A stretch of DNA of 58,549 nucleotides, counting the filler, from Dugesia japonica (Eukaryota), in NCBI GenBank assembly GCA_001938525.1. It is 4 parts of 4 records of this genome, joined end to end, with 100 filler letters (N's around TTAATTAATTAA, not from the genome) between each part and the next. Parts side by side here need not be neighbours in the genome. Positions count along the whole stretch, not along the records: positions 20,185 to 39,708 come from MQRL01609821.1; 3 more parts are not named here. The stretch is one strand, 5' to 3'. This document shows positions 9,701 to 41,627 of this stretch, one piece after another (the stretch's first letter is position 1; each line of letters starts with the position of its first letter). The notes under the pieces were generated by a model. That model was not told the origin of the DNA. It saw nothing but the letters and a program-made list of their open reading frames with translations, and searched no databases. The translations under genes were made by a program, and so were the position numbers.

Positions 9701-10227
9701 CTCTAGGGCATTCTTTAACTATTAAGTCATTATTTCGTGAAATTCTGATAATAAAACCGTTAAGGAAAAAATATGGCATTTCGGCATGGAAAGACGTGTA
9801 TTAAAAAAATAAAAGCAAATTAGACGGTATATATATGTATGGATGTATATATGTATGTATATTTGTATAAATAGATCAATAACATGAAATTTTTTTATGA
9901 ACAATTATACAAATAATTCTGTCTAATCTATTTAGAAATGATATTTGATAAGTGTAATTATGAATTTATTAAATACAACAGCAAGATTTGATAGGAATAT
10001 TTAATTAAAATCTGTTGTAATTCTGAGATATATAGCGTTTAAATTTTATTATTTTAAATATCAAAGATTAAAAAATAATATTATTTTAAAATTTTAGATT
10101 TTACTAAAGATTTTTTTGTAAATGTANNNNNNNNNNNNNNNNNNNNNNNNNNNNNNNNNNNNNNNNNNNNTTAATTAATTAANNNNNNNNNNNNNNNNNN
10201 NNNNNNNNNNNNNNNNNNNNNNNNNNT

Positions 10228-11207
10228 TTATATAAATATATTAATATTGATAAATTTTAATTTTAGATTTTTTTATTCTAGCAAAAACAACAAAGTTAAT
10301 AATTAAATCCTTAAAATTTATTTTTTATTGAGATTTTTGTTGTTGAATGCTAAATGTTTTATATCGGGTTCGTAATTGGCGCATTATCTTAAATTCACGA
10401 AGCATTAATCTCATCTATTAGTCTACTTCTCATCTCAGGTTTAATAAAGTTCATTGAAGAAAATAAGGATTCGCATGATTAAGTTCATGTAAAATTGTGA
10501 AAAATTGCTATTGTTATTTTTCAAGGTACGCAAAATTGTCTGGATAACTTTTCCAGGTTTTCACTTTATCGCTTTCGGCATTCCCATGGATTATTTCTCT
10601 TTCATTTTATCTTTTCTAAGGAAATTTTTAGATTTTCAATTTTTTGTGTCCAGATCAAATTGAACTAAAAATCNNNNNNNNNNNNNNNNNNNNNNNNNNN
10701 NNNNNNNNNNNNNNNNNNNNNNNTTTATATAAATATATTAATATTGATAAATTTTAATTTTAGATTTTTTTATTCTAGCAAAAACAACAAAGTTAATAAT
10801 TAAATCCTTAAAATTTATTTTTTATTGAGATTTTTGTTGTTGAATGCTAAATGTTTTATATCGGGTTCGTAATTGGCGCATTATCTTAAATTCACGAAGC
10901 ATTAATCTCATCTATTAGTCTACTTCTCATCTCAGGTTTAATAAAGTTCATTGAAGAAAATAAGGATTCGCATGATTAAGTTCATGTAAAATTGTGAAAA
11001 ATTGCTATTGTTATTTTTCAAGGTACGCNNNNNNNNNNNNNNNNNNNNNNNNNNNNNNNNNNNNNNNNNNNNNNNNNNNNNNNNNNNNNNNNNNNNNNNN
11101 NNNNNNNNNNNNNNNNNNNNNNNNNNNNNNNNNTTTCATTTTATCTTTTCTAAGGAAATTTTTAGATTTTCAATTTTTTGTGTCCAGATCAAATTGAACT
11201 AAAAATC
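10228..11207. repeat. Near-exact ~450-bp tandem duplicate across N gaps (probable assembly artefact)
   Basis: 10228-10673 is repeated from 10724, and both copies are bounded by gaps. Confidence 0.7.
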
Positions 11208-24480: not shown

Positions 24481-25632
24481 CGCGGTTTCGTTATTAAAAA
24501 TATAAGTTTCAACATTAGAAAATAATGGTTCATCATTGGAAAACTATGGACTAATTATAAAAATTACAAGTTTTATCATTGAAAAATATGAGTTTGGACA
24601 TAGAAAATATTTAATAGAGTAAATCTAATCACTAATGATATCACATTTATTCTATACATAATCATTTAATATGCTTAATTAGTCTATTTTCGTTTCTTTT
24701 TGCATATTTTCCCACCATTCCCGCATACTTTAGTCATTTACTTTATATATTCCTGATTTAACCCTATTTAGCCTTATTTAGCAATGTTTTTCCTTATTTT
24801 CTACCATTTTCCGTCATTTAACATTATTTAGCTATGTAATTTTTTCTAATTTCTATTGAATCTTAATATTTAAAGAGTAACATTTAGAGATAAAAGAAGA
24901 TAATAAGACTGAGTGATAGTGAGTAAGAGTTGATATGACATGCTTCTTATTTAAAATAATATAACTATTTCACTATATTTTAATCGTTTGGTTATCCTTA
25001 TACTTCTTTGCTTACTCCTTGGTTCCCTGCGTCCACCTTGGCAACCCTGTTTGTACTTCGGGTTTTCGTGGGTTTATTTTTATTTAAATACATTATTATC
25101 AGTAAAGTTGTTAGAAAATATGAGTTCAACATAGAAAATACGGTCTTATTATTAAAAGTACTTGATTCGTCATTAAAAATATTGATCTCAACATTGAAAG
25201 TATAGGTTTAATGGAAAATACNNNNNNNNNNNNNNNNNNNNNNNNNNNNNNNNNNNNNNNNNNNNNNNNNNNNNNNNNNNNNNNNNNNNNNNNNNNNNNN
25301 NNNNNNAAAATATGGAATTTATCATGAAAATACTGGTTTTAACAAGAAAATATGAGTTTTATAATGAAACTATTGGTTTTATCATTGAATATAAGACAAT
25401 TAAACCATATTTATTCAATAAAACAATTGTTGTAAGTAGTATCTACTATATTATAATTTATTATTTAGAAAAACATTTTGACAAATAAATAATACTTATT
25501 CAATTATTTCTTATCAAAGTTAGATTTTACTTTATTCTTTAATATGTTTCATTGTATTAAGTTAGAAAAAATGAACAAGAGTNGGAGGAAACTAATGTCA
25601 ATGATGACATGAAAAAGCGAGATGGTATTATC

Positions 25633-25961
25633 AAATTTACTGGAACTTTTCTAAAATTGATAGAAATTTACTAGAACTTTTTTCTAATCGTTGAAAAATT
25701 ACACAAACTTTTAAAACATTGTTGAAAGTTTACATGAACTTTTTTCAAACTAGTCAAAATTTACATGAACTTTTCTAAAATCACAAAATCCTATGTAAAA
25801 GAGCGGGAAAATAATTCTAAAATTTACTAGAACTTTTTAAAATCATTGAAAATTTACATAAATTTTTTTAAAACTAGTCAAAATTTTCCATAAACTTTTT
25901 AATCACCATTGAAAATTTCAGAAACTTTTCTAAAGTTAGTTAAAAATTACATAAACTTTTC
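25633..25961. repeat. Minisatellite, about 31-bp unit AAAATTTACWWGAACTTTTYTAAAAT...
   Basis: About 9 degenerate copies, ending just before the Polinton left flank. Confidence 0.8.
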
Positions 25962-25976
25962 TGTAATAATGACTCT

Positions 25977-26178
25977 AGTAATGTATAAATAACCAACTCT
26001 TAGCACTACCATTTTTACGATTTTTTTTTCAGTTTTTCTATGAAAAATACCCTATTTTAGATAAAAAATGAAAAAAATTAATAATTCAACATAAAAATTT
26101 CCTATGAAAAAATCGAAAAATTCGTCATAAAAAATTCTCTATGAAAATTCGGGCATGAAAAATTCCACAAAGTGCTAT
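25977..26178 (+). repeat. Polinton left TIR
   Basis: Reverse complement of 38395-38722 apart from the internal repeat copy number. Confidence 0.93.
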
Positions 26179-26215
26179 CAAAAAATTCGACATAGAAAAT
26201 TCCACAAAGTGCTAT

Positions 26216-27173
26216 TGTTGAGATAGATGTCTTTGGGATTTCGCAAAGGCAAATCAACGATTTTTACGTGAGCTCTATTATTTATATTTTTAGAGAAACG
26301 AAATCAAAGTTTTTACTTATAAATATTATTATATTCGTATGCCTATATCTTAATATGTTTAATATATAGAATTATATATTTATAAATAGACTATATAGTC
26401 TGCTTATATTAAAGAAAACAAAGTTTTACTTTTTTTTAAAATTATTTATTACCAATTACACGTTGTGATTTTGTTCTCTGAGTCTGTTACCTTAGGTATT
26501 AGACTTNNNNNNNNNNNNNNNNNNNNNNNNNNNNNNNNNNNNNNNNNNNNNNNNNNNNNNNNNNNNNNNNNNNNNNNNNNNNNNNNNNNNNNNNNNNNNN
26601 NNNNNNNNNNNAATAAACTGAAAAATTATAAAATTATTTATAATATTTACTTAAAAATAAAAATTTTCCATAAAAATATTCCTACATGATTAATTTAAAA
26701 TCCAAAATACAATATTCACATAAAAACTAAAATCGATTTTATTATCGAATTTTTTTTAAATAAACAATCCAAGTTGATTATTGTCGACTTTATTATCAAA
26801 TTCTTGAAATAAAAAATCCAAGTTGATCGAAATATAATATTTACATTAATCAAAAATTTTTACAACATTTAATATTAAAATCACTAAAGAAATAAAAANN
26901 NNNNNNNNNNNNNNNNNNNNNNNNNNNNNNNNNNNNNNNNNNNNNNNNNNNNNNNNNNNNNNNNNNNNNNNNNNNNNNNNNNNNNNNNNNNNNNNNNGAA
27001 TCATAATGTTAGAATCATAAATTCATTCAAATTGATCATAATTGTTGTGATGTCTAGTGGCTGTTTTGCTCTCAAATTGACTGCATTCCGATTGCTATTG
27101 TTTGTTATGTTTTAATGTCTGCTTATTGTATTTGTGTATGCTTGTTATATTTCAATTTGTGTCTTCCCCAACA
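26216..27173. mobile_element. Solo LTR (gypsy-type) inserted in the Polinton left subterminal repeat array
   Basis: Termini TGTTG...CAACA; 4-bp TSD CTAT at 26212-26215 and 27174-27177; removing it restores the AATTCCACAAAGTGCTATAAAAA repeat. Contains two N gaps. Confidence 0.8.
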
Positions 27174-27368
27174 CTATAAAAAAAATTCCACAAAGTGCTC
27201 TAAAAAAAATCCAACAAGTGCTATAAAAAAATACCCATGAAAAATTTTCAATTTTGAAATCCAACAAGTGCTAAAAAAAATTAAAAAAAGTGGTTAAAAA
27301 TAAAATTCCTCTTTAATCATATTTATAAAAAGGTTGTAAGGTGTCTTCTTAAAGTTTATCTTTATAAA

Positions 27369-29706
27369 ATGGTAGTAGAAACATTCGATTGCAGGTATTG
27401 TGGAAAAAACATTAAAAAATTATGGGCTCTTAATACCCATATAAAAAATAAGCATGAGTTAAAAATTCCAACTCCATGTGAGAGGTGTCATGCAATTTTT
27501 AATTCGCCAGCGCATTATGAAAAAAATAAAATGTCATCATTATGTTGGAATCAAAGGGATATAAGTTTGAGATGTGAAATTTGTAAGGCAACATTTTCAA
27601 ATCAAGGTGCAGCAAAAACACATTACGCAAGTAAAAAACATAGAAGGGCATTACCAAATTTAGAATTATCTCAAGAGATCGTAGAACTTATGTCAGTTTT
27701 TGGAATTGATAAATATCGAGATTATAAAATAGAATATTTTAAAAATAGTAAAATCGAGTTTACAAAAGACATTTCTCAAGATGGTGTTACACAAATGATT
27801 TTTTACATAAATGATTTAAAAGAAATAACAATAAGATTTTTTAATTTAAGGGGTCAAATAGTTATTCGACTTTCTGCATTAGGACAATATAGCAAACTTG
27901 CAAATAGTATAGAGGTAAGAAGAGATTTTAGATCTTATGCAAAAAATACAAGAATAATAATGGCATCTCAAATTGTAACTTCTGTGGAAAGTTTAATTAA
28001 TGAAATAGATAGTTATATAACTGATAAGGATAGATGTGAAAGTGGATGGAGTATTGAATTTATAATAAATTTTACATTTACTCTTGAACCTTATCAATCA
28101 TTAGTGACAGCGAGCACATATGTCAAGTTGCCATTTGTTAAATGGGGAGCTGTTAACATTGAAAATAATGATGATAAATGTTTTCTTTATTCAGTTTTGG
28201 CACACAAACATATTTATGCAGATTCAACACGAGTAAGTCATTATTTATCACATATTAATGAATTTAATTTAAAATGTGTTAATTTTCCAGCAAAACTTCA
28301 TGATGTACAATTATTTGAAATATTAAACAATTGGAAAATTAATTTAATAGTGTTGAAAATTATAAATGATAGAAAAATATTACAGCTAATTCATATTTCC
28401 CATTATGATTGCAAATCGAAACAAGAAGAAAATAAATGTAATTTATTACTTTATAAAAACCATCATATTTTATGTAAAAATTTAAATGGTTTTATTTCTG
28501 ATGGAAATAAAAAATATTTATGTTTAAATTGTATGAATGCCTATCAAAGTGAATCATTATTTAATAGACATCAAAGACAATGTATTAATTACAAACCCTA
28601 GGAAATAAAATATGATCCAAAGGAATATTATTCATTTAACGATTATAATTTTATGATAAAAGTTCCATTTGTAGTTTATGCCCATTTTGAGGCTTACACC
28701 AATACGTTAACCAATAAACAAAAACCAATAGCTGTTGGACTTTATATTATTAGTGAACATCCAGAATTAATAAAAACTGATTAAATAAAATTTTTTGGTG
28801 AAAATGTGATAAATGAATTTATAAGATTTTTAAATCTTTTAAATAAAAAAATATATGAGATTCTTGATTTTAGATCAACAACGGAAATTCAACAACAACC
28901 CAGAATTTTAAAAGATGAGTGTTTTACTGAAAAAAAACACTTTGGCGAAATCTAGAAGAAGTTTACAGCTTTTTCAATGGTGAATTTATAGGTCCATCAC
29001 ATGAATTTTGTAATAAGAAATATAAAAATATTATGAAAAATTTCTTTGTACCACTTTATTTTCATAACGCGGGCGGCTATGATAATCATTTATTTTTTAA
29101 AAATTTATGAGAAAAATACCCAACACAAATTAAGGATATAATTCCACACAATGATGAAATATACATATCTTTTATATTTAGGAAAATTAGATTTTTAGAT
29201 TCATGCAAACTATGCCCAATGATATCAATTGAAGCACAGATTCTCTCTTTGTCGAAATCAGGGACCAAGAAAATTTGGACAAGTTGAAAACGCTATTAGG
29301 AAATGACCACTTTCAAATGAAAGATGAAATGCCTAATAGTATAATTATACAATGTAATTTTATAAGGTCAAAATGTTATGGAGTTTTATTTGTGACAGAA
29401 GATGGAAAGATAAAATTTAATCCAACACATAAAGGTTCAGCTAAAACCAACAATATGAAAATGAAAGAGTATGATAAAATTTTAAATGATCCAAATGTAA
29501 CAGTTTATGGAACGAATCATAGTATAAAATCAGAGGCTCATGAACTAGAAGTAGTTTCTCAAGATAAAATAGTAATGACCGCTTATGATGATAAAGTTTT
29601 AATTGAAATTAATGGAATTATAACATGACCACACGGTAATCAATTTTGGTGTGAAATTTGTCAAATGTGGCATTTTAGATTAGAACTTTTAAATGGAATT
29701 TTATAA
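27369..29706 (+). pseudogene. Protein-primed family B DNA polymerase (pPolB) with N-terminal zinc fingers; stops, frameshifts and a large internal deletion
   Basis: ZnFs CRYC..H..H and CEIC..HYASKKH; SGWS..YVKLP..AVNIENNDDKCFLYSVLA; after the TAG at 28599, VPFVVYAHFE (ExoI), FNGEFIGPSHEFCN (EndoVII-like remnant), FHNAGGYDNH (ExoII) and FLDS; then directly TDSLF (motif C remnant, 29236), KDE..IRSKCY..HKG and AYDDK..GIIT*PHG. Confidence 0.92.
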
Positions 29707-29709
29707 TGT

Positions 29710-30056
29710 TTAAACTTTTAGGTTTTTAATTAAATTTTCATAATTTGGATTTTCACTTTTGGATTTTAAAATTATTTCTTGAACTTCACGAATCATGGTT
29801 TTACTTGTAGAAATTTCTTCATCTGTTAAAATATTATCATTCAAGGCCTTTTGTTGAAATAGAAAAAGTTTACTTATTTACTCCATTTACTAAAAAATTT
29901 TCGATAGTGTTTTATTTTATCATTTATAAAATATAAGTCATTTTCAAAATCTTTAATTCTTAGATATGACAATTTACTTTTTAGGTCTTCAAGTGTATAA
30001 TTATTAATTTCATGTTGATAATTTTTTAAATCAGGATATAAGGATTCTTCTGCCAT
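29710..30056 (-). pseudogene. Conserved Polinton hypothetical protein (LYPxL...KALxDxxLTxEE type), apparently with a central deletion
   Basis: MAEESLYPDL...RIKDFE...KIKHYRKFFSKWSK* followed in another frame by ISKLFLFQQKALNDNILTDEEI...LKV*. Confidence 0.55.
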
Positions 30057-30074
30057 TTTTACAAGGGAAAATTT

Positions 30075-31189
30075 TTATAATTCATTTAATATTTTTTCCC
30101 TTTCATCCTTACAAAAATTAGGAACACTAATAAGGTTATTAATATAAATATTTGCTGGCAAAATTAAATGAAATTTTTTTAAGTATACACTTGTCATTAT
30201 ATCATCTTTTTCCAGATAACTAGTATAATTATTTCCCCCCTTTAAATTTATAGTGTTTATTTCCAATTTAAATTTTCCTTGTTTTTCAAACGCAAAATTT
30301 ACAATCTCACCAGAACCAGTAAAATTAATAATAATACTAAATTTATGTATTTTTGTATATCCGCCAAGAAAAACACATAATGGGCCAACGTCTGATTTAG
30401 GTTTAAAATAAAGTTTAAAAGGACTCGTAAGAAAAAAAAATAGTTTTTCATTAAGATATTCCCAACGACCACTTATTATTACTTTTTATAAGATTACATA
30501 TTCTGGGACGGTGGAATAATATGGAAATCTATTATTATTTTTATGGATAAAAAACATTCTAAAAATCACAAACGCGCTAAAACTATTTTTAAAAAAATCT
30601 GTTCTTCGAATATCCATCCACGGTAAATAATTATCAATTGATTCTTTTATTTTTTCTATTAGCCTAGGAGATTTGGTTGTTTTATATATTTCTAAATCTT
30701 CATTAATTTTTTTTATATATTCTGGGTTAAGAAGATTTTTTATTTTATTAAATTCCGCCAGCAAAGGAAATATAGGATCATTTTTTTCAAAATAGAAAAT
30801 TGGTTTTTTAAAAGATCAACTTCTTCTCTTTTTATAACCTGTTTTTTAAAATTTTCGGCATCATCTTTTATTTCGGAAATAAACTTCTAAACAAATTTTT
30901 TGAGAAATTTATAATTTATTGGATCAAGTTCATCTTCAGGTTCATTACGAATTTTTAAAGTGTTAAATTTATTTTCGTGGGTTTTAAATTTATTTTCGAG
31001 GAATTTTAAATTTACTGCATCAAGTTCGTGTTTAGGGGCATCAAAAATTTTTAAGGATTTAATACTATCACCAGATTCATTTACAAATCTTTTTTCATTA
31101 CTTGCATCTTGTATTCTTAGTTTACCAGAAATATGATTTATGATTTCTTTATCATTCATCGTTTGTAAGCTTTCTCCAAATATGTTCAT
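30075..31189 (-). pseudogene. Putative fibre/spike-like protein, probably one gene broken into ORFs 30887-31189, 30486-30764 and 30075-30266
   Basis: MNIFG start, FVNESGD, and two P..ELD(A/P)(V/I)N.KFL repeats resembling the P...DAxNxxY stalk repeats of trimeric fibres; same strand and contiguous. Confidence 0.45.
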
Positions 31190-31586
31190 TTATTTCAGAA
31201 ATAATATCATCAAAAGATTTTTTGGGAAAGCTATATAAAAAATAAATACAAAGTACTCCACAAATTCTTGTTTCAAAAGGTTGAACTTGAATTTCATTAA
31301 ATTTTTCAACATGCTTCTCAAGATCTTCATGAAAAGGTTTTAAACCAAAAGAGTCAAAATAGTATTTATTCTTCAGGGCAACCCAATGAGTTCCATTTTG
31401 ATTTGTATTTTGATAATTAAAAATATAATTCATATTATTTTTAAATTTATCTGGCAACTCATTTTTCATGTAAATTTCCAATGGTATTTTTAAAAAGTTT
31501 GCAATTGAATAAATATCGAAATTTGTAGTTGTTGTAATTCTAAATGTTTTTATAAAATCTAAAATCCCTATTTTAACATTGGACAT
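31152..31586 (-). CDS. Adenain-like cysteine maturation protease, intact ORF, 144 aa
   Basis: GTHWVAL (His), YFDSFGLKP (Asp), QVQPFETRICGVLCIYFL (oxyanion Gln and catalytic Cys). Confidence 0.92.
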   Translation of the reverse strand: MSNVKIGILDFIKTFRITTTTNFDIYSIANFLKIPLEIYMKNELPDKFKNNMNYIFNYQNTNQNGTHWVALKNKYYFDSFGLKPFHEDLEKHVEKFNEIQVQPFETRICGVLCIYFLYSFPKKSFDDIISEINEHIWRKLTNDE

Positions 31587-32258
31587 TTTCTTAAATGAAT
31601 TAATAATGACATTGTTTTAATAATGAATAGGTTTTAAATTTTCATCCACAACTTCAAATCTTAACTCATCAACATAACCAATAGATATTTTTGAGTAAAT
31701 AGGTTAAGATGGTCTTTCAATAATTTTAAATCCAAACCTTACACTAATTATTGGAAATGAATATAAAAAATAAGTTGGTTTATTATTTTTATAATTTTCC
31801 TTGATTAAATTAGAAGTAATGTTGATCATGTTTATATTATTACTAATGTTAACTTTCTCTTCGGAAAAATATTTTGTTCCAGGAATATACTCTTTCACCC
31901 CAAAACCTAAAAGTTTAAAAAAGAAAGATTTTTCATCAAAATTTAAAGTCTTATTTAAACCAGGCTTAGGAATAATTATTTCAAGCATAAATCTGGCGGT
32001 TGAGAGATCTGGAGTTATAATTATTCCTAGGTCGGTTAATTTCTCTGAAATTTGTTTAACCTCATAGGCTCCAGGATGAATTTTTTTATTTACACCTCCA
32101 AAAGTAAAATTACAATTTTCTTTTTGTATATTAAAAATAATATTATAGCAAGAAAAGTAAATTAAACCAAGTTCGTATTCTCCTGTTAATTCTAACGGAG
32201 GTTTTAAATTAATTTCTAAATTTGGACCTTTACCAGTAACTAAAAATTGATGAGACAT
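31587..32258 (-). pseudogene. Minor capsid (penton-like, single jelly-roll) protein with premature stops
   Basis: PPLELTGEYELGL..FSCYNIIFNI, PGAYEVKQI, INITSNLIKENY..LYSF..GFKIIERP*PIY..LRFEVVDENLKPI is the typical Polinton penton pattern. Confidence 0.85.
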
Positions 32259-33155
32259 TTATTTAAAATATTTTTTTTGATAGTCTTTATATTTTTCTTT
32301 TGTAATTAATTTCTTCGCTCTAATTTTTCACAGAGTGATTTAATTTCTTGGCTGGTATTTTAATACCCGGATTTCTTAGCTGAAATTAAAACTATTAATT
32401 TTTCAAATAAATCTATTTCTGCGCCTTGTCCTTGTTGTTGTAGCGGTTTTAATATTGGTATTTTTTTATATGAGGGCTTTTTTTAGGTGATGATCGTACT
32501 GATTTTGGTTTTACTTTTTTTTCAACATTTTATAATAATTACCATTCTTTGGATGTTTAATATTTAATTTGTTTAAATATATATTTGCATCTTCTGATTT
32601 AATAATATCAGTTTCTTTCCCTCCTAAAATTAATGTCATTACATTATTTGAATAGGGAATAAGTTTATCTGGAGATATATAAAAATATGGAATTGTATCC
32701 TTTTCAACTAAATATATTTTTTTATCATTAATTTTAATGGTTGGATACCTTTTTTCATTAATATTTTCATAAATAATTTCTGGTGTTGTTGGTGTTAAAT
32801 TATCATTATTAATTATAATTTTATCATCATTTATTGTGAATGGGAGTTTATCTTTAAATTCATCTTCTAATTTTGGTTCTAATTTTTTATCTAATATTGG
32901 TTGTACTGGTTGTTGTAATTTTATTTCTTGTGTTGGCGATTTTATTTCTTGTTTTGGTAATCCTGGTGTTAGTGGTTGTAATTGTTGTTGTACTGTTTGT
33001 TGTAATGTTGAAATTAATGGTTGTTGTTGAAAAGTAAATGATGATTGTAAATTTTTAGATTGAAGAACTTTACTGGTGAAATATTCATTATATTTTTCTT
33101 CAGCTGCAATTATTTCTTTTAATTCTTTGATTCTTCTTTCGATGTCGCTAGTCAT
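32259..33155 (-). pseudogene. Conserved Polinton virion/core-like protein (Q/P-rich; C-terminal L..L.....G...EI..L...L motif), frameshifted
   Basis: ORF 32511-33155 continues through frameshifts as QQQGQGAEIDLFEKLIVLISAKKSGY*NTSQEIKSLCEKL..KKLITKEKYKDYQKKYFK*, ending at a TAA adjacent to the penton ATG. Confidence 0.6.
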
Positions 33156-33159
33156 TTTA

Positions 33160-33598
33160 ATAAGGATTTAAATATATTCCTGTTCCATCATAAGGTCTTA
33201 AGAATATTCCCCCATCTTTTTTTTTTAATTCTTTCGATGGTTTTAAATTTTGATTTTTTAAATATTTATAAATTGCTTCACCCTGTTTTTCATTTATCTT
33301 TCTACTTCAACTTCTTTATTTAATTGATCAATTTCAAGTTGTGTTTTATGCGCCTCCCGGGAACTTGCACTGTGGATGCGATTCAACTAGCAATCCCGGC
33401 AGCACTCGCAGCTCCAGCAAGGATTCCTGGTATGGCGGCTAAGAAAAAAAAGCCACCTTGTTTTTTTTGATGTTTTTTAATTTTTTCTTTTGCTTTTTTA
33501 CCAATCCAATAATTTTTACCATCAATTTTAATAGATCTACTAAGATTTGAATTTACTAACTTAATTAATTCTTCTTCTTTTATATTTGCTTCGGGCAT
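33160..33598 (-). pseudogene. Adenovirus pX(mu)-like basic plus hydrophobic peptide precursor
   Basis: KKAKEKIKKHQKKQGG|FFFLAAIPGILAGAASAAGIAS resembles the adenovirus pX C-terminal GG|xLPxLIPxIAAAIGAxPGIAS; interrupted by TGA at 33383-33385. The 3' end is approximate. Confidence 0.65.
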
Positions 33599-33629
33599 TT
33601 TATTTAGCAAAAAGATCGGTTGTCACTTC

Positions 33630-34356
33630 ATTTGTTAAATGGTTTAAATAAAAATATGTATAGGATTCTTTCCAATGAAAATTTACTTCATAGTCATAAA
33701 CATCTTTTTCAGTAATATTTGAAAATTAATCACTATAAACACTGTCACGATCTTTTTTATTTAATCGAAAAAATATAAAACAATTTGTGTTATTTCTTAT
33801 TGAATTTTTATCAAGGTGAAAATATGTTTGTGAAATGTAAATTACATTACAATTTGAATGTCTTCCTCGAGTGAAATAACTTTTTTGAATTTCTTGATTC
33901 CTTTCATTTACAATATCATCAAAAATTACAAGATTTTTTTTTATTCTTTTTTAAACGATCACAAGGAATAATATCATTTGATTTATTACTTAGGATTATT
34001 TCTATTAACTGTAGTCTTTTTGTTACAAATTTCTTTTCAATGAAAAAATTTATAACTTCTATTGGTCTAGTACATGAATCTGGAACAATCGCTTGTTTCT
34101 CAAACATTAATATTATTTCTTGTTTTGTTAAACTATTTAAAAATCCATGATATAATAATTGTACTTCAAATTGAAAAATTGTAGTTGAGTAAAATATTAA
34201 ATTATTATTATCAAGAAAACCTGGGGTAAGTAACATTTAACTCAAGAGAACATTTTTCACACAACCAGAAGACATAATTATCAACAATCGAAAATTACTA
34301 GGAAAAAGTTAATTATTAAAAATTGTCTTATCTTTCTTCCAAACTAAATTACTCAT
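33630..34356 (-). pseudogene. A32-like (FtsK/HerA superfamily) DNA packaging ATPase
   Basis: ATG at 34356; LFPSNFRLLIIMSSGCVK (degenerate Walker A), NLVIFDD (Walker B), YFTRGRHSNCNVIYISQTYF, IRNN. Confidence 0.9.
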
Positions 34357-34362
34357 CCTTTT

Positions 34363-35614
34363 TTATAAAGAAGTTTTTTGTAACTCGTTCTCATAAAATC
34401 TTCCAAGAATTTTTTCATTATCGGTTGGATCGGGACTTTGATAAGTTGGTGGAATTGTTAGATAAATTTTTGTAACAATGTAAGTTTCTACAGACCATTT
34501 AAATTTATATTTTTTTTCAAATGTATTTTTTTTAATGAAAAGTATTTTTTTTAATTATAAATATTTTAACTTTATCTCCTATTTTAAATTTAGGTTTAAA
34601 GTTTTTAGGTCTCATATCTTTGGGTTCCTCATTAAAAACTTTGCCAGTTTCATACGCGAGTTTTGGAGTTGTTCTAATTGAAGAATGAATTGTGTTGTTG
34701 TAATCATCTACTATTTTTTATAGGAGGTCATTTGTGATTTCTTGATTCCCAACGGTAGTAAAATGTTTAAAAAGTTTGTTTTTAAATGTACGATTAAATC
34801 TTTCAATGACAACTGCCTTTCCTTGATTATAAGTAGAGTACATGTTGATACTTTTTTTTACACCAATCGGAAAATGTTGAATTGTAAAATTCCTTTCCAT
34901 TATCAACACAAAGATTATTTGGAGCTCGAATATTATCATTTAGAATTTTNTCAAATGCTTCAGTAATCACCGCGGCGGTTTTATTATCGCAAAGTTTTAC
35001 AAAGGCAAATCTTGTTTAAAGATCAATCACAGTTAGCATTACTTGCTTATTATGAAATGTTAAATCTGCTGACCAAGTTTCATCGGGTTCACTTACTGTT
35101 ACTTTTAATAATTGTTTTGGTTTTCTATAATTATGATGAAGCTCATCTGCCAGTTCTCCTCCTAAACTTTGGCCGATCATTATTTTACCCTTCATTGCTG
35201 TTTTTACAAGAAAGCCTTGAAATTTTTCTTCTGCTGTTGGATTTTCAATATTATTAATATCCTCTATTAAATGCACATCGGCTACGTGTCGATCTGTCAT
35301 ATCTTCTGAATTATAAACAATATCATGTTTCAGTGCCGCTGCATCAATTCGATTAATTGGTTCTTCTCCTGGTAATGGATTATTATTTTCATCAAGTCTA
35401 ATATCTAATCTAGTTCCTGAACCTGTGTAATTATGATGGAATAAATGTCGCTCGCCCGGATGTTTTTCCCAAGTAAATGGTTTTAAAACATTGCTAACAA
35501 GACTTGGTGATTGAAGATGTCCCCCGCCCTTACAAAGTTTCATGTGTCTGGCTTTATTTTTTTTAAGAGGGTTCTATGACATTTTTCAGATGTAAATTTT
35601 ATCGATTTAGTCAT
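34363..35614 (-). pseudogene. Fusion protein: small C2HC zinc finger, parvovirus VP1u-type phospholipase A2, retroviral-type (DDE) integrase
   Basis: PLA2 motifs HNYTGSGT, INRIDAAALKHDIVY and RHVAD run in one frame (35016-35543) into integrase ELADELHH..DETWSADL..LTVIDL*TRFAF..VDNGKEFYN, then after a frameshift IERFNRT..YNNTIHSSI..KFKIGDKV..FYENELQ. Confidence 0.9.
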
Positions 35615-35615
35615 T

Positions 35616-36852
35616 TTATCTATTTGAAAATTCAACACCTTTAACATTTTCAATCATTGCAATTTTATTATTAGCAAGTTTCATTTCAATGTGTTTTTCT
35701 TCAAGAATATACCAGTAAAGACTTCCGGTAAAATCTGGATCCTTTGTAATGTGAAGTGTAACATCAACATTATTTATATTTAATCTATCATCTTGAGCTG
35801 ATCAAAACAGAAAATTGGATAATCATCACCAAATTCTTGAAGAGATAATTGTGGTTCTGTGAAAAAGTCTTGACAACATTTTAAATAATTTAAATAGGGA
35901 GAAATCATTTCATTATTTTCCATATTAAATTTACATTCATTGATTAGATAGTAATTATTATTTAATTGAATTTGCACGCTTTTTAAATAATAATTTACAG
36001 TTGTATCTTTTGTATCAACTTTTGTGGTTTTTGTTTTTTTTTGAATAAATAAATTATTATTATTAAAAGAAATAGTTTCATTTTTTATAGCTATAAAAAT
36101 ATATCTTGGTTTGTACGCAAGCATACTTAATTTTAAAGAAGCATAATTTCCAGTGTTTAATATCGCCTTTCCTGTTATTCTATTTAAAAATCCAACTTTA
36201 ATTGGTTTATCTGTTGAAATTCTTTTGAAAAGCATTAATTCTATTTTAGGCGCTAATCTACATTCTGGAATGTGAAGCTCGAGAGTTAGCAATTTTAAAT
36301 TTGGTGTGCCCTCTCCTTTAAATAAAAGTTTATTATTAATTTGTCGATAGCAATTAAATTCAATCATTGTGTTATAAAGTACTCGGTTAAAATTTTTCAT
36401 GAATCCAAATAAATTTCTCAATGGAAAAGAACCTTCAAATTTTTTAGATGCATAAAATTTCTTTCTTCTATCTTCTTCAAGAATCCATCCTGATAATTCT
36501 CCATATATTTCTCTATGAGTAAAATTTTTTGTAGTAAAATTTAACATGGTTGATATTGTACCAGGATCGTTAATAGTTTCTACATCGGATGCTCCAAGTT
36601 TTAATCTCATAAATTTAAATAAAGATGGGAAAAAATTATTTTCTAGTATTGCAGTTTTTCCTTCAGTATATTCTAATTCTATTCTAAAGTATAACATCGC
36701 ATTACAAATATCTAATGAATTAGTTGATTGTAAAGATTGAAAAGTTATCTCCCCATCTTTATTAAATTTGGAATTGTACTAGATGATGGTGAAATTTTTA
36801 AAATGTCATTTTTTAACATTTCATTATTATCGAGATTTATTTTTCCATCCAT
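35616..36852 (-). pseudogene. Major capsid protein (double jelly-roll, hexon-like), frameshifted near both ends
   Basis: LENNFFPSLFKFMRLKLGASDVETINDPGTISTM, FPLRNLFGF..FNRVL, KPRYIFIA, QIQLNNNYY and YPIFCFD follow the Polinton MCP pattern; ATG 36852, stop 35616. Confidence 0.88.
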
Positions 36853-36949
36853 TTTCTTTAATAATTTTTTAACATATTTATAACATTTGCGGCTTTTACC
36901 GTAGGCTGGCTCGTGGGGTGGCTCGTTGTAACATCTCCCCATTTGATTT

Positions 36950-37225
36950 TCATATTATTATAGATAGAAAAAACATCATCATCATCATAATTTTTCGCAG
37001 GGCTTTTCGCGGGCTCATAAATTTTCTTGGGGTCATTAATTTCAAATCTCTATTAAATACATAAATCGTCCATTTTTTTTTTCTATATAATTTTGTTGTT
37101 TGTATTCTTTTATTATATGGAATATTAAACCTATTTAAATATGCTCTTATAGTTTTTTCACTTAATGTGTGAAATTTACAAAAATCTTTTACTGAATTAT
37201 TTAGAAAATCATAATTCCTTAACAT
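36950..37225 (-). CDS. Small putative HTH DNA-binding protein (Polinton accessory)
   Basis: SVKDFCKFHTLSEKTIRAYLNRFNIP has helix-turn-helix spacing; the C-terminus is probably frameshifted. Confidence 0.45.
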   Translation of the reverse strand: MLRNYDFLNNSVKDFCKFHTLSEKTIRAYLNRFNIPYNKRIQTTKLYRKKKWTIYVFNRDLKLMTPRKFMSPRKALRKIMMMMMFFLSIII

Positions 37226-37250
37226 TTTTTAAAAAAACATCAGGCATTTT

Positions 37251-37772
37251 TTAATGTATTCTTTTTACTTTAGCACTTTCTATACTTTTAATTTCTTTTG
37301 GTATTTTTAAATTTACATATTTATTAGTAGCTTCAGATTCTTTTATTTTTTTCATCGCGGCGTTACAAAGCATTTTAACATCAGCTGATTTTACATATGA
37401 TCTACCATTTTCATTTAATTTTGGTTTATATCTAACATTAAAAACATCATCATAGTCTATCTTACTTGGTTTTGTTTCTTCTTTTAATTTATTAAGCGCA
37501 ATGTTATGCTCATCTCGTTCTTTTTGTAAAATATTTTTTAATTCTTCTACTATTTTTAATAAATATTCTTTTTGTCCATTAATTAAATTAAGTGCGAGAC
37601 CTTTACAATATAAAGAAAATATAAAGGTTAATACTCCTTTAAATAATTTAAGATTTTCTTCTTCTAAATTCATTTCATCTACTTCTTTAAAAATTTGATT
37701 AAGATATAATAATTTTTCTTTTGCTGCTTCCGCTATAACATCACATTTTATATATCCTTCAATTTCACCCAA
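37251..37772 (-). CDS. Hypothetical coiled-coil protein (Polinton accessory)
   Basis: 173-aa open frame, helical and E/K/L-rich; start uncertain. Confidence 0.5.
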   Translation of the reverse strand: MGEIEGYIKCDVIAEAAKEKLLYLNQIFKEVDEMNLEEENLKLFKGVLTFIFSLYCKGLALNLINGQKEYLLKIVEELKNILQKERDEHNIALNKLKEETKPSKIDYDDVFNVRYKPKLNENGRSYVKSADVKMLCNAAMKKIKESEATNKYVNLKIPKEIKSIESAKVKRIH

Positions 37773-37860
37773 CCCGCCATCCTCATCAACACAGATTTTT
37801 TATTATATTAAAAACTGCGCGTAGACCTAGCTGCCCCTGTTCTTTTTTCGCTACCATTTT

Positions 37861-38118
37861 CTAAAGAAATAATTCAGCAATAAAATATTTTTCATTGTTG
37901 GGTAGAAAACCTGGTTTTAGTTTAGTTTTTTTCCAATACATTGAAAATATGAAAACTATTAGCGTAATGAAGTTTGGCTGAATTTGATTTTTAAATTTAA
38001 TATCACAAGCAGAACAATATAAATCTACATCTTCAGGTTTTGCACATTTGGATGCGATGTCATGACGAGCCAATTCCCATTTGTTTGAAAATGCGCGATT
38101 ACATTTTTTACATTCCAT
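37861..38118 (-). pseudogene. Zinc-finger protein (Polinton accessory), frameshifted
   Basis: CKKC..F....LARH....C, then CSACDIKFKNQ continuing in the shifted frame as SAKLHYANSFH. Confidence 0.65.
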
Positions 38119-38132
38119 TTTATAAATGATTT

Positions 38133-38378
38133 TTATAGGAATTCTAAAATCTCTTTTACCCCTCTATACTTTCTAGTTCTTCTTTGAAATTGAAAACCAA
38201 ACGCTTCATAAAGTATATTTTCTAACCAAACTTCTTTTTTTTCCCAGTTGTCATTTTCAAAGGAATAATTCACCAATAAAATATTTAACATGGTTTTTTC
38301 CAATATACGAATAACATGAAAACTAGTAATACGATTTTTTAATTTTTGTTGGTCAAAATCCCTTAATGAAAATTCCAT
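38133..38378 (-). CDS. Hypothetical 81-aa protein, first gene inside the right TIR
   Basis: Intact ATG ORF preceded by the CTATAAAAATTATTTATAAA cassette that is shared with the next gene. Confidence 0.5.
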   Translation of the reverse strand: MEFSLRDFDQQKLKNRITSFHVIRILEKTMLNILLVNYSFENDNWEKKEVWLENILYEAFGFQFQRRTRKYRGVKEILEFL

Positions 38379-38394
38379 TTTATAAATAATTTTT

Positions 38395-38722
38395 ATAGCA
38401 CTTTGTGGAATTTTTCATGCCCGATTTTTTATGCCCGAATTTTTCATTCCCGATTTTTCATTCCCGAATTTTCATAGAGAATTTTTTATGACGAATTTTT
38501 CGATTTTTTAATGTCCGATTTTCTTTGCCCGAATTTTTTATGCGCAATTTAAAATCGAAAATTTTTTATGACGAATTTTTCGATTTTTTCATAGGAAATT
38601 TTTATGTTGAATTATTAAATTTTTCATTTTTTATCTAAAATAGGGTATTTTTCATAAAAAAACTGAAAATTAAAAAAATCGTAAAAATGGTAGTGCTAAG
38701 AGGTGGTTATTTATACATTAAT
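38395..38722 (-). repeat. Polinton right TIR with internal 14-bp repeats
   Basis: Inverted match to 25977-26178, with extra ATGCCCGA(A)TTTTT units. Confidence 0.93.
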
Positions 38723-38952
38723 GACTCTAATACTGGCAATTGACTATATACAATCTACCAATTGTTCACTCAATCAATTATACTTTGATTGTACTATCAA
38801 TCAATCTAAATAATTCAGTCAATTATTCATATATTTTCAGCCTTAATATTATAAAATCCTTTGAAAATATAGGTTCATTCAGAATAATGTACATTATTCG
38901 CCTATTAATCATACTTAGTATAATATTTGCTAATATAGGGTTTAAGTCATAG

Positions 38953-39200
38953 TACACAACTCTCGCTATTATCAAGTCTTAACATACACAATACTCACTA
39001 TCAATAAGTATTAACATACACAATACTCCCTATTATCAAGTATTAACATACAAACAGTACAATATTCGCTTTCATCAAGTCTTAATACATAATACTCGCT
39101 ATCAACAGCTATTAACATATACAATTCTCACTATCATCAAGTATTAACATATCCAAATCTCACTGTCGTTATGTATTACCATACACAATATTCGTTATAA
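38953..39200. repeat. Minisatellite, about 32-bp unit TACACAATACTCGCTATCATCAAGTATTAACA
   Basis: About 7-8 degenerate copies. Confidence 0.8.
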
Positions 39201-39912
39201 TCATTTACCTATTGATTATTCAGTTAATGGCTTAGTCTATTCATCGCTTATTCTTATAGTCAGGTCTATAATCCACACTGAATATATACATTACAACCAA
39301 TAACTGGTTAATTGTTCACATATATTCAACTTAATATATACACATATGTAAACATAACATCTTTGTAAACATAACATCTTATCAATTAATTTACCCATTG
39401 AATATCTGCTTGTAACATTTAAATTTATCCAATCATTAAAAGTCTAACCAATTATTCACAAACCTATTATTAACGTTTCAAATTAATTAAATAATTAAAT
39501 CCTCAAATAGAAATTTTATTCAATCAAAGTAAAATAATTAATAAAAAATTTATGAAGTTTTAAAATTAACCAAACAGTACATTTACCAATAGTGAAAAGC
39601 TAGACCAACAAAGAGTAAGAAAATTAGTAAAGATTGAAGACCTGTGAAGAACGAGAAAACCATTGACAACTCAAGATCAGTGCACAGCTATCAGAGTTTT
39701 GATGTCTGNNNNNNNNNNNNNNNNNNNNNNNNNNNNNNNNNNNNNNNNNNNNTTAATTAATTAANNNNNNNNNNNNNNNNNNNNNNNNNNNNNNNNNNNN
39801 NNNNNNNNATATATTACAATTAAAAATAAAATGATTAATCATGCCGAAGAAAATTTCAAAGTTGTATTAATAATTATTGTAAAAAATGTTTGGTGCATTT
39901 TTAAAAGATCAA

Positions 39913-41583
39913 TCAATTTTTCTTGCTTTTTGAAGTGATGCAATTGTATATAACTAATTGCACAAACAATTCTACTATTTCCAACATTGACATAACCGAA
40001 AATCCTAAATACAATCCTAAAATTCCTCCGATATCTGATAAGAGATTTTCAATAGGATATGACAAACTTTCTTCTGTTATCTCAACAGAAAGTTGTTTGG
40101 GAATAAATTTAAGAACTGACACTAAAAGTAACATATCAATTTCATTTTGTGCTGCTGCTCTCAAAACATCAACAGACTTATTTTCAGCCAAAATATAAGG
40201 CACTACACTTTCAATAGATTCTGCAAAAAGTGGGATAAACCCCCAATTTTGCCGATCCATTCTAACTGTTGAAACTTCGAATTTGTAATTATTCTCTGTA
40301 CAACTTGGTAGACACATCTTTGAAAATTGTTCATTTTCCATTGATTTGAGTTGCTGTTGATGGCATGAATATCTTATTGCCAGATTTGAAAATAAATTAT
40401 TTTTTGTGATATTTTGTATTTTTTCTAATGAAATAAATGAATTATTAATCTTTGCTATTAATTCAGATGGAATCTCATGACAGAAAGGGGCTGAATCAGG
40501 AATTGCTGAAGAGCATAAGAGTAATTCCGAGCGACATCCACAATTTTGATAAATTACTTCGCTCTTTTTAGTTTCAGTGCATAGGTACCTAGAATAGGAA
40601 TATGTATTAAGTTCACTTAAACCATAGCCTCTAAGTATAATATCATTTGGATTATCAAAGCAAACATTATTACTGTTGTCTCGAATTATAGTTTCTTGGC
40701 TAAAAGAGATTTGTTTTGAAAGTCCTCTATATACATAATGACCACCGGATTTTAAATCAGGCATAGAATTAGGAGGATGTATGTAAACCATACCACCGAC
40801 GAGTAATTGTTGCTCTTCTAAAGATCTCACTGCCATTTCAAAACGGTCATTACCACCTACAGCTAATAAATTGAATAAAAACGCCGTATTATCAGAACCG
40901 TCCAAATAATTTACAGTACGTATAAGAGGTTTAAATGTAACACAAATGAATCCATCAAATGTCGGAGTCACTGCGAGATTATTTACAGTAATATTGTTTC
41001 CTTTGTGATTTAATTTTATAATTATATCATGTCTTCCTCTTAATCGTTTAATATTATATGTTTGTCGCATTATTGAATATCGTGCTAAAGGCGCTGTTGA
41101 AATATTTAAAACAACTTTATTCCAGATTTCATTGTAGCGATTAAACAGTTCAGTGAACGTTGTCCCATTAAATATTTGTGTAGTATCTGGAGAAATTGAA
41201 TTAGTAGGGTCAGATTCTTCATAGAAATATAATCTTTGATTCGGACAAGCTGTAATATCCGGCATGATTAATCTATTATCTGGTGTTACATAGAAGGAAG
41301 AATTTACTCCATAATCGAAATACCGAAAGATTAAAAAAATTAAATGTATAATTAATCCAATAAATGTAATTATCATTATTATGACCCAAATCCATCTTAC
41401 TACATTAGAACTTTCTGAAACCTTTACAAATCCATGCCCACTAGTATTCTTACAAAATGATTTTATCAATGCTTTTGAATCTTTATCTTCTTCATCTTCT
41501 TTTTCAATACCTTCTTGTTGGTAATCATCTGAACCTTTAGATCTTTCACTTTCAAAAGCGTTATTCTCAAATGAATTGTTCAT
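39913..41583 (-). CDS. DEG/ENaC (ASIC/FaNaC superfamily) amiloride-sensitive cation channel subunit, intronless, 556 aa
   Basis: FCKNTSGHGF (HG motif), TM1, MPDITAC, Cys-rich thumb (CGC, CLPSC), and LLSDIGGILGLYLGFSVMSMLEIVE (TM2 with GxS filter). Confidence 0.95.
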   Translation of the reverse strand: MNNSFENNAFESERSKGSDDYQQEGIEKEDEEDKDSKALIKSFCKNTSGHGFVKVSESSNVVRWIWVIIMIITFIGLIIHLIFLIFRYFDYGVNSSFYVTPDNRLIMPDITACPNQRLYFYEESDPTNSISPDTTQIFNGTTFTELFNRYNEIWNKVVLNISTAPLARYSIMRQTYNIKRLRGRHDIIIKLNHKGNNITVNNLAVTPTFDGFICVTFKPLIRTVNYLDGSDNTAFLFNLLAVGGNDRFEMAVRSLEEQQLLVGGMVYIHPPNSMPDLKSGGHYVYRGLSKQISFSQETIIRDNSNNVCFDNPNDIILRGYGLSELNTYSYSRYLCTETKKSEVIYQNCGCRSELLLCSSAIPDSAPFCHEIPSELIAKINNSFISLEKIQNITKNNLFSNLAIRYSCHQQQLKSMENEQFSKMCLPSCTENNYKFEVSTVRMDRQNWGFIPLFAESIESVVPYILAENKSVDVLRAAAQNEIDMLLLVSVLKFIPKQLSVEITEESLSYPIENLLSDIGGILGLYLGFSVMSMLEIVELFVQLVIYNCITSKSKKN

Positions 41584-41627
41584 TTCTTAATTATAAAATA
41601 CTAAACAACTCATTAAATATATACTTT

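Follow-up and report, generated by a model that had tools for sequence, protein, structure and literature searches.

A phospholipase A2-integrase fusion gene in a decayed Polinton of Dugesia japonica and in its integrase relatives

Background

Do the Polintons of animals form infectious particles, and by what route does their integrase reach the incoming DNA? A broken gene in Dugesia japonica bears on both questions. It lies in a window of 58,549 nucleotides, i.e. the whole stretch of DNA analysed here (four parts of assembly GCA_001938525.1 joined end to end), and a sequence-only reading had described its product as a polyprotein with a zinc finger, a phospholipase A2 (PLA2) and an integrase. 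Here we ask whether this joining of an entry enzyme to an integration enzyme is an accident of one copy or a family trait, and what it might do.

Results

The gene belongs to a decayed Polinton

The gene is part of a dead copy of a Polinton (Maverick, adintovirus) of 12,746 bp, which spans positions 25977-38722. The arms of the element are 191-nt inverted repeats that are 91% alike (left arm 25977-26165, plus strand, starting with AG; right arm 38531-38722, minus strand), and a 6-bp duplication, GACTCT, flanks it at both ends (25971-25976 and 38723-38728); a target-site duplication of this length is a hallmark of Polintons/Mavericks. On the plus strand lies a broken gene for a protein-primed PolB with N-terminal zinc fingers, which is split over several frames (27285-29628; tblastn with the PolB of locus L017, PF03175, E 6e-48), and the other genes are on the minus strand. 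Specifically, these are a double jelly-roll capsid protein (35616-36778; PF21738, E 3.5e-12; 38% to the capsid of locus L004), the fusion gene, a broken A32/FtsK packaging ATPase (33642-34302; PF04665, E 1e-6), a protein X-like core protein (33383-33622; KKQGG and then a hydrophobic stretch; 37% to an L004 ORF that matches Adeno_PX at E 9e-4), an unassigned core-type ORF of 218 aa (32511-33167), a probable minor capsid protein (31620-32258; 37% to the ORF adjoining the L004 fusion) and an adenain-like cysteine protease in an open frame (31152-31616; HW / YFDSFG / Q / CG; weak PF00770 match, E 0.02; tblastn E 2e-14 against a protease-like ORF of L050). The product of 31620-32258 we take to be the penton; a Pfam profile search with this candidate gave no match. 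The element is thus a Polinton/Maverick by its inverted repeats and duplication, its PolB, its rve DDE integrase and its capsid, ATPase and protease genes. As judged by tblastn with natural relatives, the whole window holds one PLA2 and one integrase, and both are within the fusion gene.

The host DNA around the element is AT-rich, and tandem repeats of 31 and 32 nt lie immediately outside its ends (25624-25964 and 38912-39217). The stretch from the capsid gene to the right repeat (36745-38414, minus strand) carries small ORFs, with a C2HC/C2H2 finger and a weak helix-turn-helix match among them, that are possible early regulators. At 1.2 kb beyond the right repeat, an uninterrupted, intronless frame of 557 aa (39913-41586, minus strand) encodes a degenerin/ENaC channel (PF00858, E 2e-51) and is either a host gene or a retrocopy.

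PLA2 and integrase share one frame

That PLA2 and integrase are joined in one frame, as the sequence-only reading had it, is confirmed: a stop-to-stop frame of 185 aa (35016-35573, minus strand) runs from the second half of the finger through PLA2 into the start of the integrase and its first catalytic Asp, with every motif in the expected place (CKGGG 35534, YTGSG 35429, HDIVY 35327, RHVAD 35291, SLGG 35168, LADELH 35153 and WSADL 35075). The parvovirus VP1u-type PLA2 domain (35172-35525; 65% to the stand-alone protein P0083) gives this frame a match to PF08398 at E 2.4e-7, above the curated cut-off, and is followed by a glycine-rich junction in the same frame (35154-35174) and the rve integrase part (34363-35153), which comprises the core and C-terminal domain and is interrupted by two stops and two frameshifts. 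The gene ends at 34363, directly after the integrase C-terminal domain, and the chromodomain is absent.

The remainder of the DDE triad also lies where it had been placed, VDNGKEF (34907) being in the same frame beyond one stop (35016-35018) and IERFNRT (34807) beyond one frameshift (between 34863 and 34849), and we find a further stop (34718-34720) and a further frameshift (between 34559 and 34530) in the C-terminal part. At the other end (35520-35614; start codon, degenerate zinc finger and GG site), the ATG at 35614 and the first half of the finger do stand in another frame, the shift lying near 35558; the finger itself lacks one of its four metal-ligand positions. With five breaks in all the window copy makes no working protein, and its Ca-loop differs in a single position from the form that 67 of 73 relatives keep.

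Searches with the window ORF found no relative in viral_contigs and no significant match among PDB sequences. A natural database protein, P0001, aligns to residues 27-461 at 52-58% identity (E 8e-110), and the gene is therefore not a product of chance.

Diverged contigs of a sequencing run bridge the junction

The sequence-only reading had called for other copies and reads to be inspected for an in-frame junction. Many diverged relatives of the gene turn up in runs that carry the same species label; in run X3, which may be the source sample, 6,366 contig pieces were aligned, only 520 of them at least 99% alike. Where the window copy has its first stop, almost the whole aligned depth shows a sense codon (4,285/4,311 in X3 and 1,489/1,532 in X1, a run from another study), and this stop is therefore private to the window copy. 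Moreover, two diverged X1 contigs, with 27 and 31 other letters, bridge the junction gap-free and with the same spacing. Two RNA runs with the same species label, of which 6% and 25% were read, yielded 44 and 28 reads. Almost all of these were partial matches with less than 90% identity, and none crossed the junction; expression of the fusion gene was not seen in these portions of the raw data.

The fusion recurs among relatives

With the window ORF as query, all 32 matches of 325-2000 aa carry both PF08398 and PF00665, in a length range that favours long proteins; among matches of 101-324 aa, 9 of 21 also run into integrase. Both domains stand in one stop-free frame in 26 of 49 related loci, and the remaining loci are cut by contig ends, frameshifted or stand-alone. 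When clustered at 50% identity, the 150 representatives comprise 36 with integrase, 51 with a short tail, 39 with a long tail (several of which reach the integrase start motif) and 24 that are truncated; stand-alone PLA2s are also common. Bias was smallest in a search for which the query was the integrase part of P0001 alone: among the best 120 of 733 matches (254-811 aa), 81 have an in-frame PLA2, 11 have a PLA2 tail, two have an adenain-like protease in its place, 18 are free-standing and eight are uninformative. The suspicion that other Polintons carry similar fusions is thus borne out. In the fetched loci the fusion adjoins capsid, ATPase, protein X-like, protease and PolB genes, and in existing annotation its products are called 'hypothetical' or 'transposase InsO'. 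One fused protein is source-named from the coral Oculina patagonica; it is a gene model and its frame may be spliced.

These comparisons support the PLA2-integrase fusion as a conserved family architecture as opposed to a copy-specific accident. Five breaks in the copy and many N gaps in the window might lead one to see in the fusion an accident of decay or of assembly, which we consider highly improbable: it is refuted by the long matches, the related loci, the bridging X1 contigs and the 81 fusions among the best 120 relatives.

Three other observations concern the same gene families. Locus L049 has a stand-alone DUF5679-PLA2 gene (9806-10378) on a Polinton-like viral contig, with no integrase in the 13,150 of 17,634 bases examined. 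In L040 a stand-alone PLA2 (960-1170) is followed 20 bases later by an ORF that by eye resembles the start of another type of integrase with a longer N-terminus. Polinton-type integrases on short contigs of three bacterial MAGs (L059, L060 and L061) are probably eukaryotic or viral contamination.

Both halves appear to be kept functional

A full PLA2 is present in 73 of the 81 fusions (from the best 120 of 733). All 73 retain the HD-x2-Y motif and the Asp downstream of it, and 67 retain the Ca-loop; all three DDE motifs are present in 68 of the 81 fusions. Pairwise dN/dS is 0.11-0.24 for PLA2 in seven of nine pairs (two saturated) and 0.06-0.22 for integrase in four of nine (five saturated), and these ratios show both halves to be under purifying selection.

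The AlphaFold model of a natural relative, P0003 (pLDDT 77, pTM 0.51), has separate domains and a loose linker, which is unstructured at residues 148-170 (pLDDT under 50). Residues 171-434 match foamy virus integrase (Z 20.1, rmsd 4.7, 239 aligned). The sequence-only reading had proposed a structural check of the PLA2 part, and residues 52-155 do match the rice PLA2 2wg7 (rmsd 3.7, 94 aligned), with a Z of 7.1 that is under the safe level of 8; the model thus weakly suggests that the N-terminal part folds like a PLA2. Foldseek with the full P0003 model returned integrase and transposase matches only, and a single-sequence model of stand-alone P0083 was poor (pLDDT 57) and was left out.

Glycine motifs border the PLA2 domain

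The zinc finger had been regarded as part of the polyprotein architecture, and this did not hold: a C2H2 finger, with weak zf-U1 matches, is found in only 10 of the 81 fusions and was rejected as a fixed part. Others have a DUF5679 ribbon as N-terminal module (P0027, P0030 and L023), and many have no module.

Glycine motifs do flank PLA2 on both sides, as the sequence-only reading had noted. Ahead of PLA2 a GG is present in 41/73, and the residues before it vary at these 41 sites (K 11, Y 10, H 5). On the other side, at the junction, what is conserved is a GG or GxG that immediately adjoins the end of the last PLA2 helix (67/73; 6/73 are without the motif). SLGG lies in a non-conserved linker, is incidental to the window and was rejected as the conserved site. 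The linker past the junction glycines is 0-48 residues long, with length 0 in 17/73. In a control the junction motif was found in 46 of 20,598 windows (0.2%), a rate that overstates the contrast, the test window being anchored on one conserved glycine. The glycines may be a helix cap, because the stand-alone PLA2s P0083, P0084 and P0093 end right after the domain with the same glycines. In the protein X-like ORFs of these elements a GG precedes the hydrophobic stretch at 14 distinct sites (17 rows minus two chance matches and one duplicate), with Lys two places ahead in 12. The mavirus protease is reported, in the available text of Born et al. 2018 (PMC6048507), to cut between GG and X and between GX and G, and by analogy the junction GG/GxG are candidate protease sites with the same motifs.

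Taking together the fusion, its wide occurrence in a large integrase lineage, the selection on both halves and these motifs, we infer that the protein is, fairly probably, packed in the capsid via PLA2 and then cut apart by the element's protease at the glycine motifs, so that PLA2 would serve as a Gag-Pol-like packaging tag. PLA2 would be a virion core protein that aids the particle across the endosomal membrane, as in parvoviruses; an integrase on its C-terminus would be carried inside the particle, as Gag carries Pol in retroviruses; the maturation protease would release finger, PLA2 and integrase; and the incoming DNA could be integrated before any viral gene is expressed. The sequence-only reading had the polyprotein couple membrane breach to the delivery of integrase, which is not supported in that form: given cleavage at maturation, the link would come into play in loading, during assembly, and not as a physical coupling while the membrane is breached. 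Packaging as such would not need a fusion, since mavirus and insect Polintons encode integrase separately.

Alternatively, the protein would stay uncut, with PLA2 (and the finger) in place of the N-terminal domain and the chromodomain that are missing from this integrase lineage; these parts would direct the complex of DNA and integrase to membranes or across the nuclear envelope. The linkers of length 0 and the junctions without GG or GxG fit such a protein, as does the model, where the retroviral integrase match starts at residue 171 and PLA2 sits at the place of the N-terminal domain; the variable linker, unstructured in the same model, argues against it.

An integrase lineage in which the fusion prevails

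A quick IQ-TREE tree of integrases (134 rows, midpoint root) splits in two sides, each with SH-aLRT 99. One side has 79 rows, 74 of them fused and the other five cut at the N-terminus; none is flagged for a chromodomain, and P0001, the window's best match (54%), is among them. The other side has 55 rows, most of which have a chromodomain-length tail, and 21 of the 55 are fused. Overall, such a tail is missing in 78 of 95 fused proteins, as opposed to 17 of 18 free-standing integrases that have one, which speaks for PLA2 taking the place of the chromodomain in an uncut protein. Against this, 17 of the 95 keep a long tail, several of them with a chromodomain, and on balance we regard the uncut protein as unlikely.

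The fused label changes 12 times on the integrase tree, or seven times after truncated rows are relabelled, and 32 times on the PLA2 tree (167 rows), in which the window PLA2 groups with one fused and two stand-alone proteins (SH-aLRT 99). The 7-12 changes on the midpoint-rooted integrase tree do not establish a single origin of the fusion, and this reading was set aside. Both the changes and this grouping are what one would expect if neighbouring genes had merged by stop loss or frameshift, which would be tolerated since the protease separates the products, and if the fusion had no role in loading integrase; adjacent, overlapping and out-of-frame PLA2 and integrase genes in three loci (L044, L022 and L050) point the same way. 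However, no intact integrase stands free in the 79-row clade, which includes pairs at about 50% identity; many of the seeming losses come from gene calls cut short where copies have decayed; and both observed fusion partners are virion proteins. Gene compaction of this kind therefore seems to us a rather poor prospect, and we retain packaging via PLA2 followed by cleavage as the preferred reading.

Protease-integrase fusions and overlapping frames

P0317 (a cluster of eight) and P0280 join an adenain-like protease in frame to an integrase that has a chromodomain, and the junction residues are GG or GAG; the cluster of one of these fusions has a member named from the sponge Sycon ciliatum. These proteins hint that the partner of integrase is exchangeable and again a virion protein, which fits loading and argues against an uncut PLA2-integrase. 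In a separate case, a 444-aa frame in L007 (2182-3513, minus strand) joins protease-like and protein X-like parts (Adeno_PX, E 0.002), as a real fusion or through a lost stop.

In the three loci with overlapping genes the PLA2 and integrase frames overlap at -1, with an A-run directly past the junction glycines (L044:1030-1070, L022:405-445 and L050:6335-6385). Canonical slippery heptamers stand in phase in L044 and L022, where the integrase frame is free of Met ahead of its start motif; L050 has one Met. When 19 free-standing integrase N-termini were submitted to a frame test, two (P0307 and P0310) agreed with a PLA2 tail overlapping at -1 in the expected position, one fitted elsewhere, one fitted +1 and 15, most of them too short, gave nothing; the control gave 7 and 1 of 5,687 positions. 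Two further candidates were discarded: L062, whose frames part at another place and cannot be connected by a frameshift at the A-run, and which we read as a fusion that has decayed, and L064, a chance pattern match.

The overlaps could represent a programmed, Gag-Pol-like frameshift, a reading that is weakened because A-runs lose bases easily, because in-frame relatives exist (P0161 and L023), because L062 is shifted elsewhere and because RNA structure downstream of the slippery sites is inconsistent (z -2.0 in L022, -0.9 in L050 and 0.1 in L044); we regard it as doubtful. Equally tentative is the wider scheme in which animal Polintons have converged on the Gag-Pol solution, loading integrase as a C-terminal extension of a core protein (lipase or protease), such that one lineage would have fixed the fusion and its sister chromodomain lineage would use a programmed -1 frameshift at the A-rich site after PLA2, setting a low integrase-to-lipase ratio. 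In the available text of Buck et al. 2024, -1 frameshifts are suggested for penton and hexon-adenain and not for integrase.

Discussion

It is hard to see why a purely intracellular transposon would have its integrase joined to an entry enzyme, with selection acting on the pair throughout a large lineage; the fusion points to particles carrying their own integrase. For annotation, many Polinton integrases that pass as 'free-standing' may be parts of a longer product that were called wrongly.

The PLA2-integrase fusion is apparently undescribed. The literature searched, to the extent that its text was available and with Repbase and most subscription journals outside its scope, holds no statement on it, and the accessible parts of a coral polintovirus preprint, of PMC11161782 and of PMC12567637 contain nothing on it; the domain pair is visible in precomputed Pfam annotation and may have been noticed.

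What the accessible text of earlier work describes is a different layout. In alpha adintoviruses and group 2 Maverick-Polintons, PLA2X stands as a gene of its own, whose product carries a protein X-like domain at the C-terminus, and integrase is another gene, with a chromodomain (PMC8502044, PMC5803895). PLA2 (PLA2X, CAP) as a separate Polinton gene is also reported in PMC3671162, PMC4642659 and PMC11296320, and in bioRxiv 10.64898/2026.06.19.733378 and 2026.07.28.741253; the packing of Polinton lipases in particles for entry has been proposed (PMC4642659). Six of our loci, of insect type (L051-L054, L056 and L057), show this separate layout of PLA2X and chromodomain-integrase. As far as PLA2X is described (Starrett et al. 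2021; Geisler 2018), the window gene resembles it in the parvovirus VP1u-type domain (PF08398), the type of element and the proposed role in entry. It differs in that integrase takes the C-terminal place, protein X is separate (33383-33622) and the chromodomain is missing; by its PLA2 domain it would belong to the PLA2X class, of which it lacks the C-terminal protein X-like domain. The adintovirus definition of Starrett and Buck includes a PolB with an N-terminal OTU domain and an integrase with a C-terminal chromodomain, and the window's integrase gene is without a chromodomain.

The available text of PMC6048507 reports that mavirus particles contain an integrase of the rve type together with a cysteine protease and a cleaved alpha/beta hydrolase. 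The mavirus hydrolase is unrelated in fold to PLA2, and it is encoded apart from the integrase.

With the parvovirus VP1 unique region the fusion shares the Ca-loop, HD-x2-Y and the downstream Asp, and the tethering of PLA2 to another virion function; in VP1 the tether is to a capsid protein, and in the Polinton fusion it is to integrase. Finally, in the Gag-Pol of retroviruses and LTR retrotransposons, integrase is the C-terminal part of a structural precursor, is packed through it and is freed by a protease. The fusion is like Gag-Pol in the C-terminal position of integrase and, in the P0003 model, in a fold that matches foamy virus integrase. It differs in that it belongs to a DNA virus whose capsid is of the jelly-roll type, in having an entry lipase as the carrier and in that the protease, a cysteine protease, comes from another gene.
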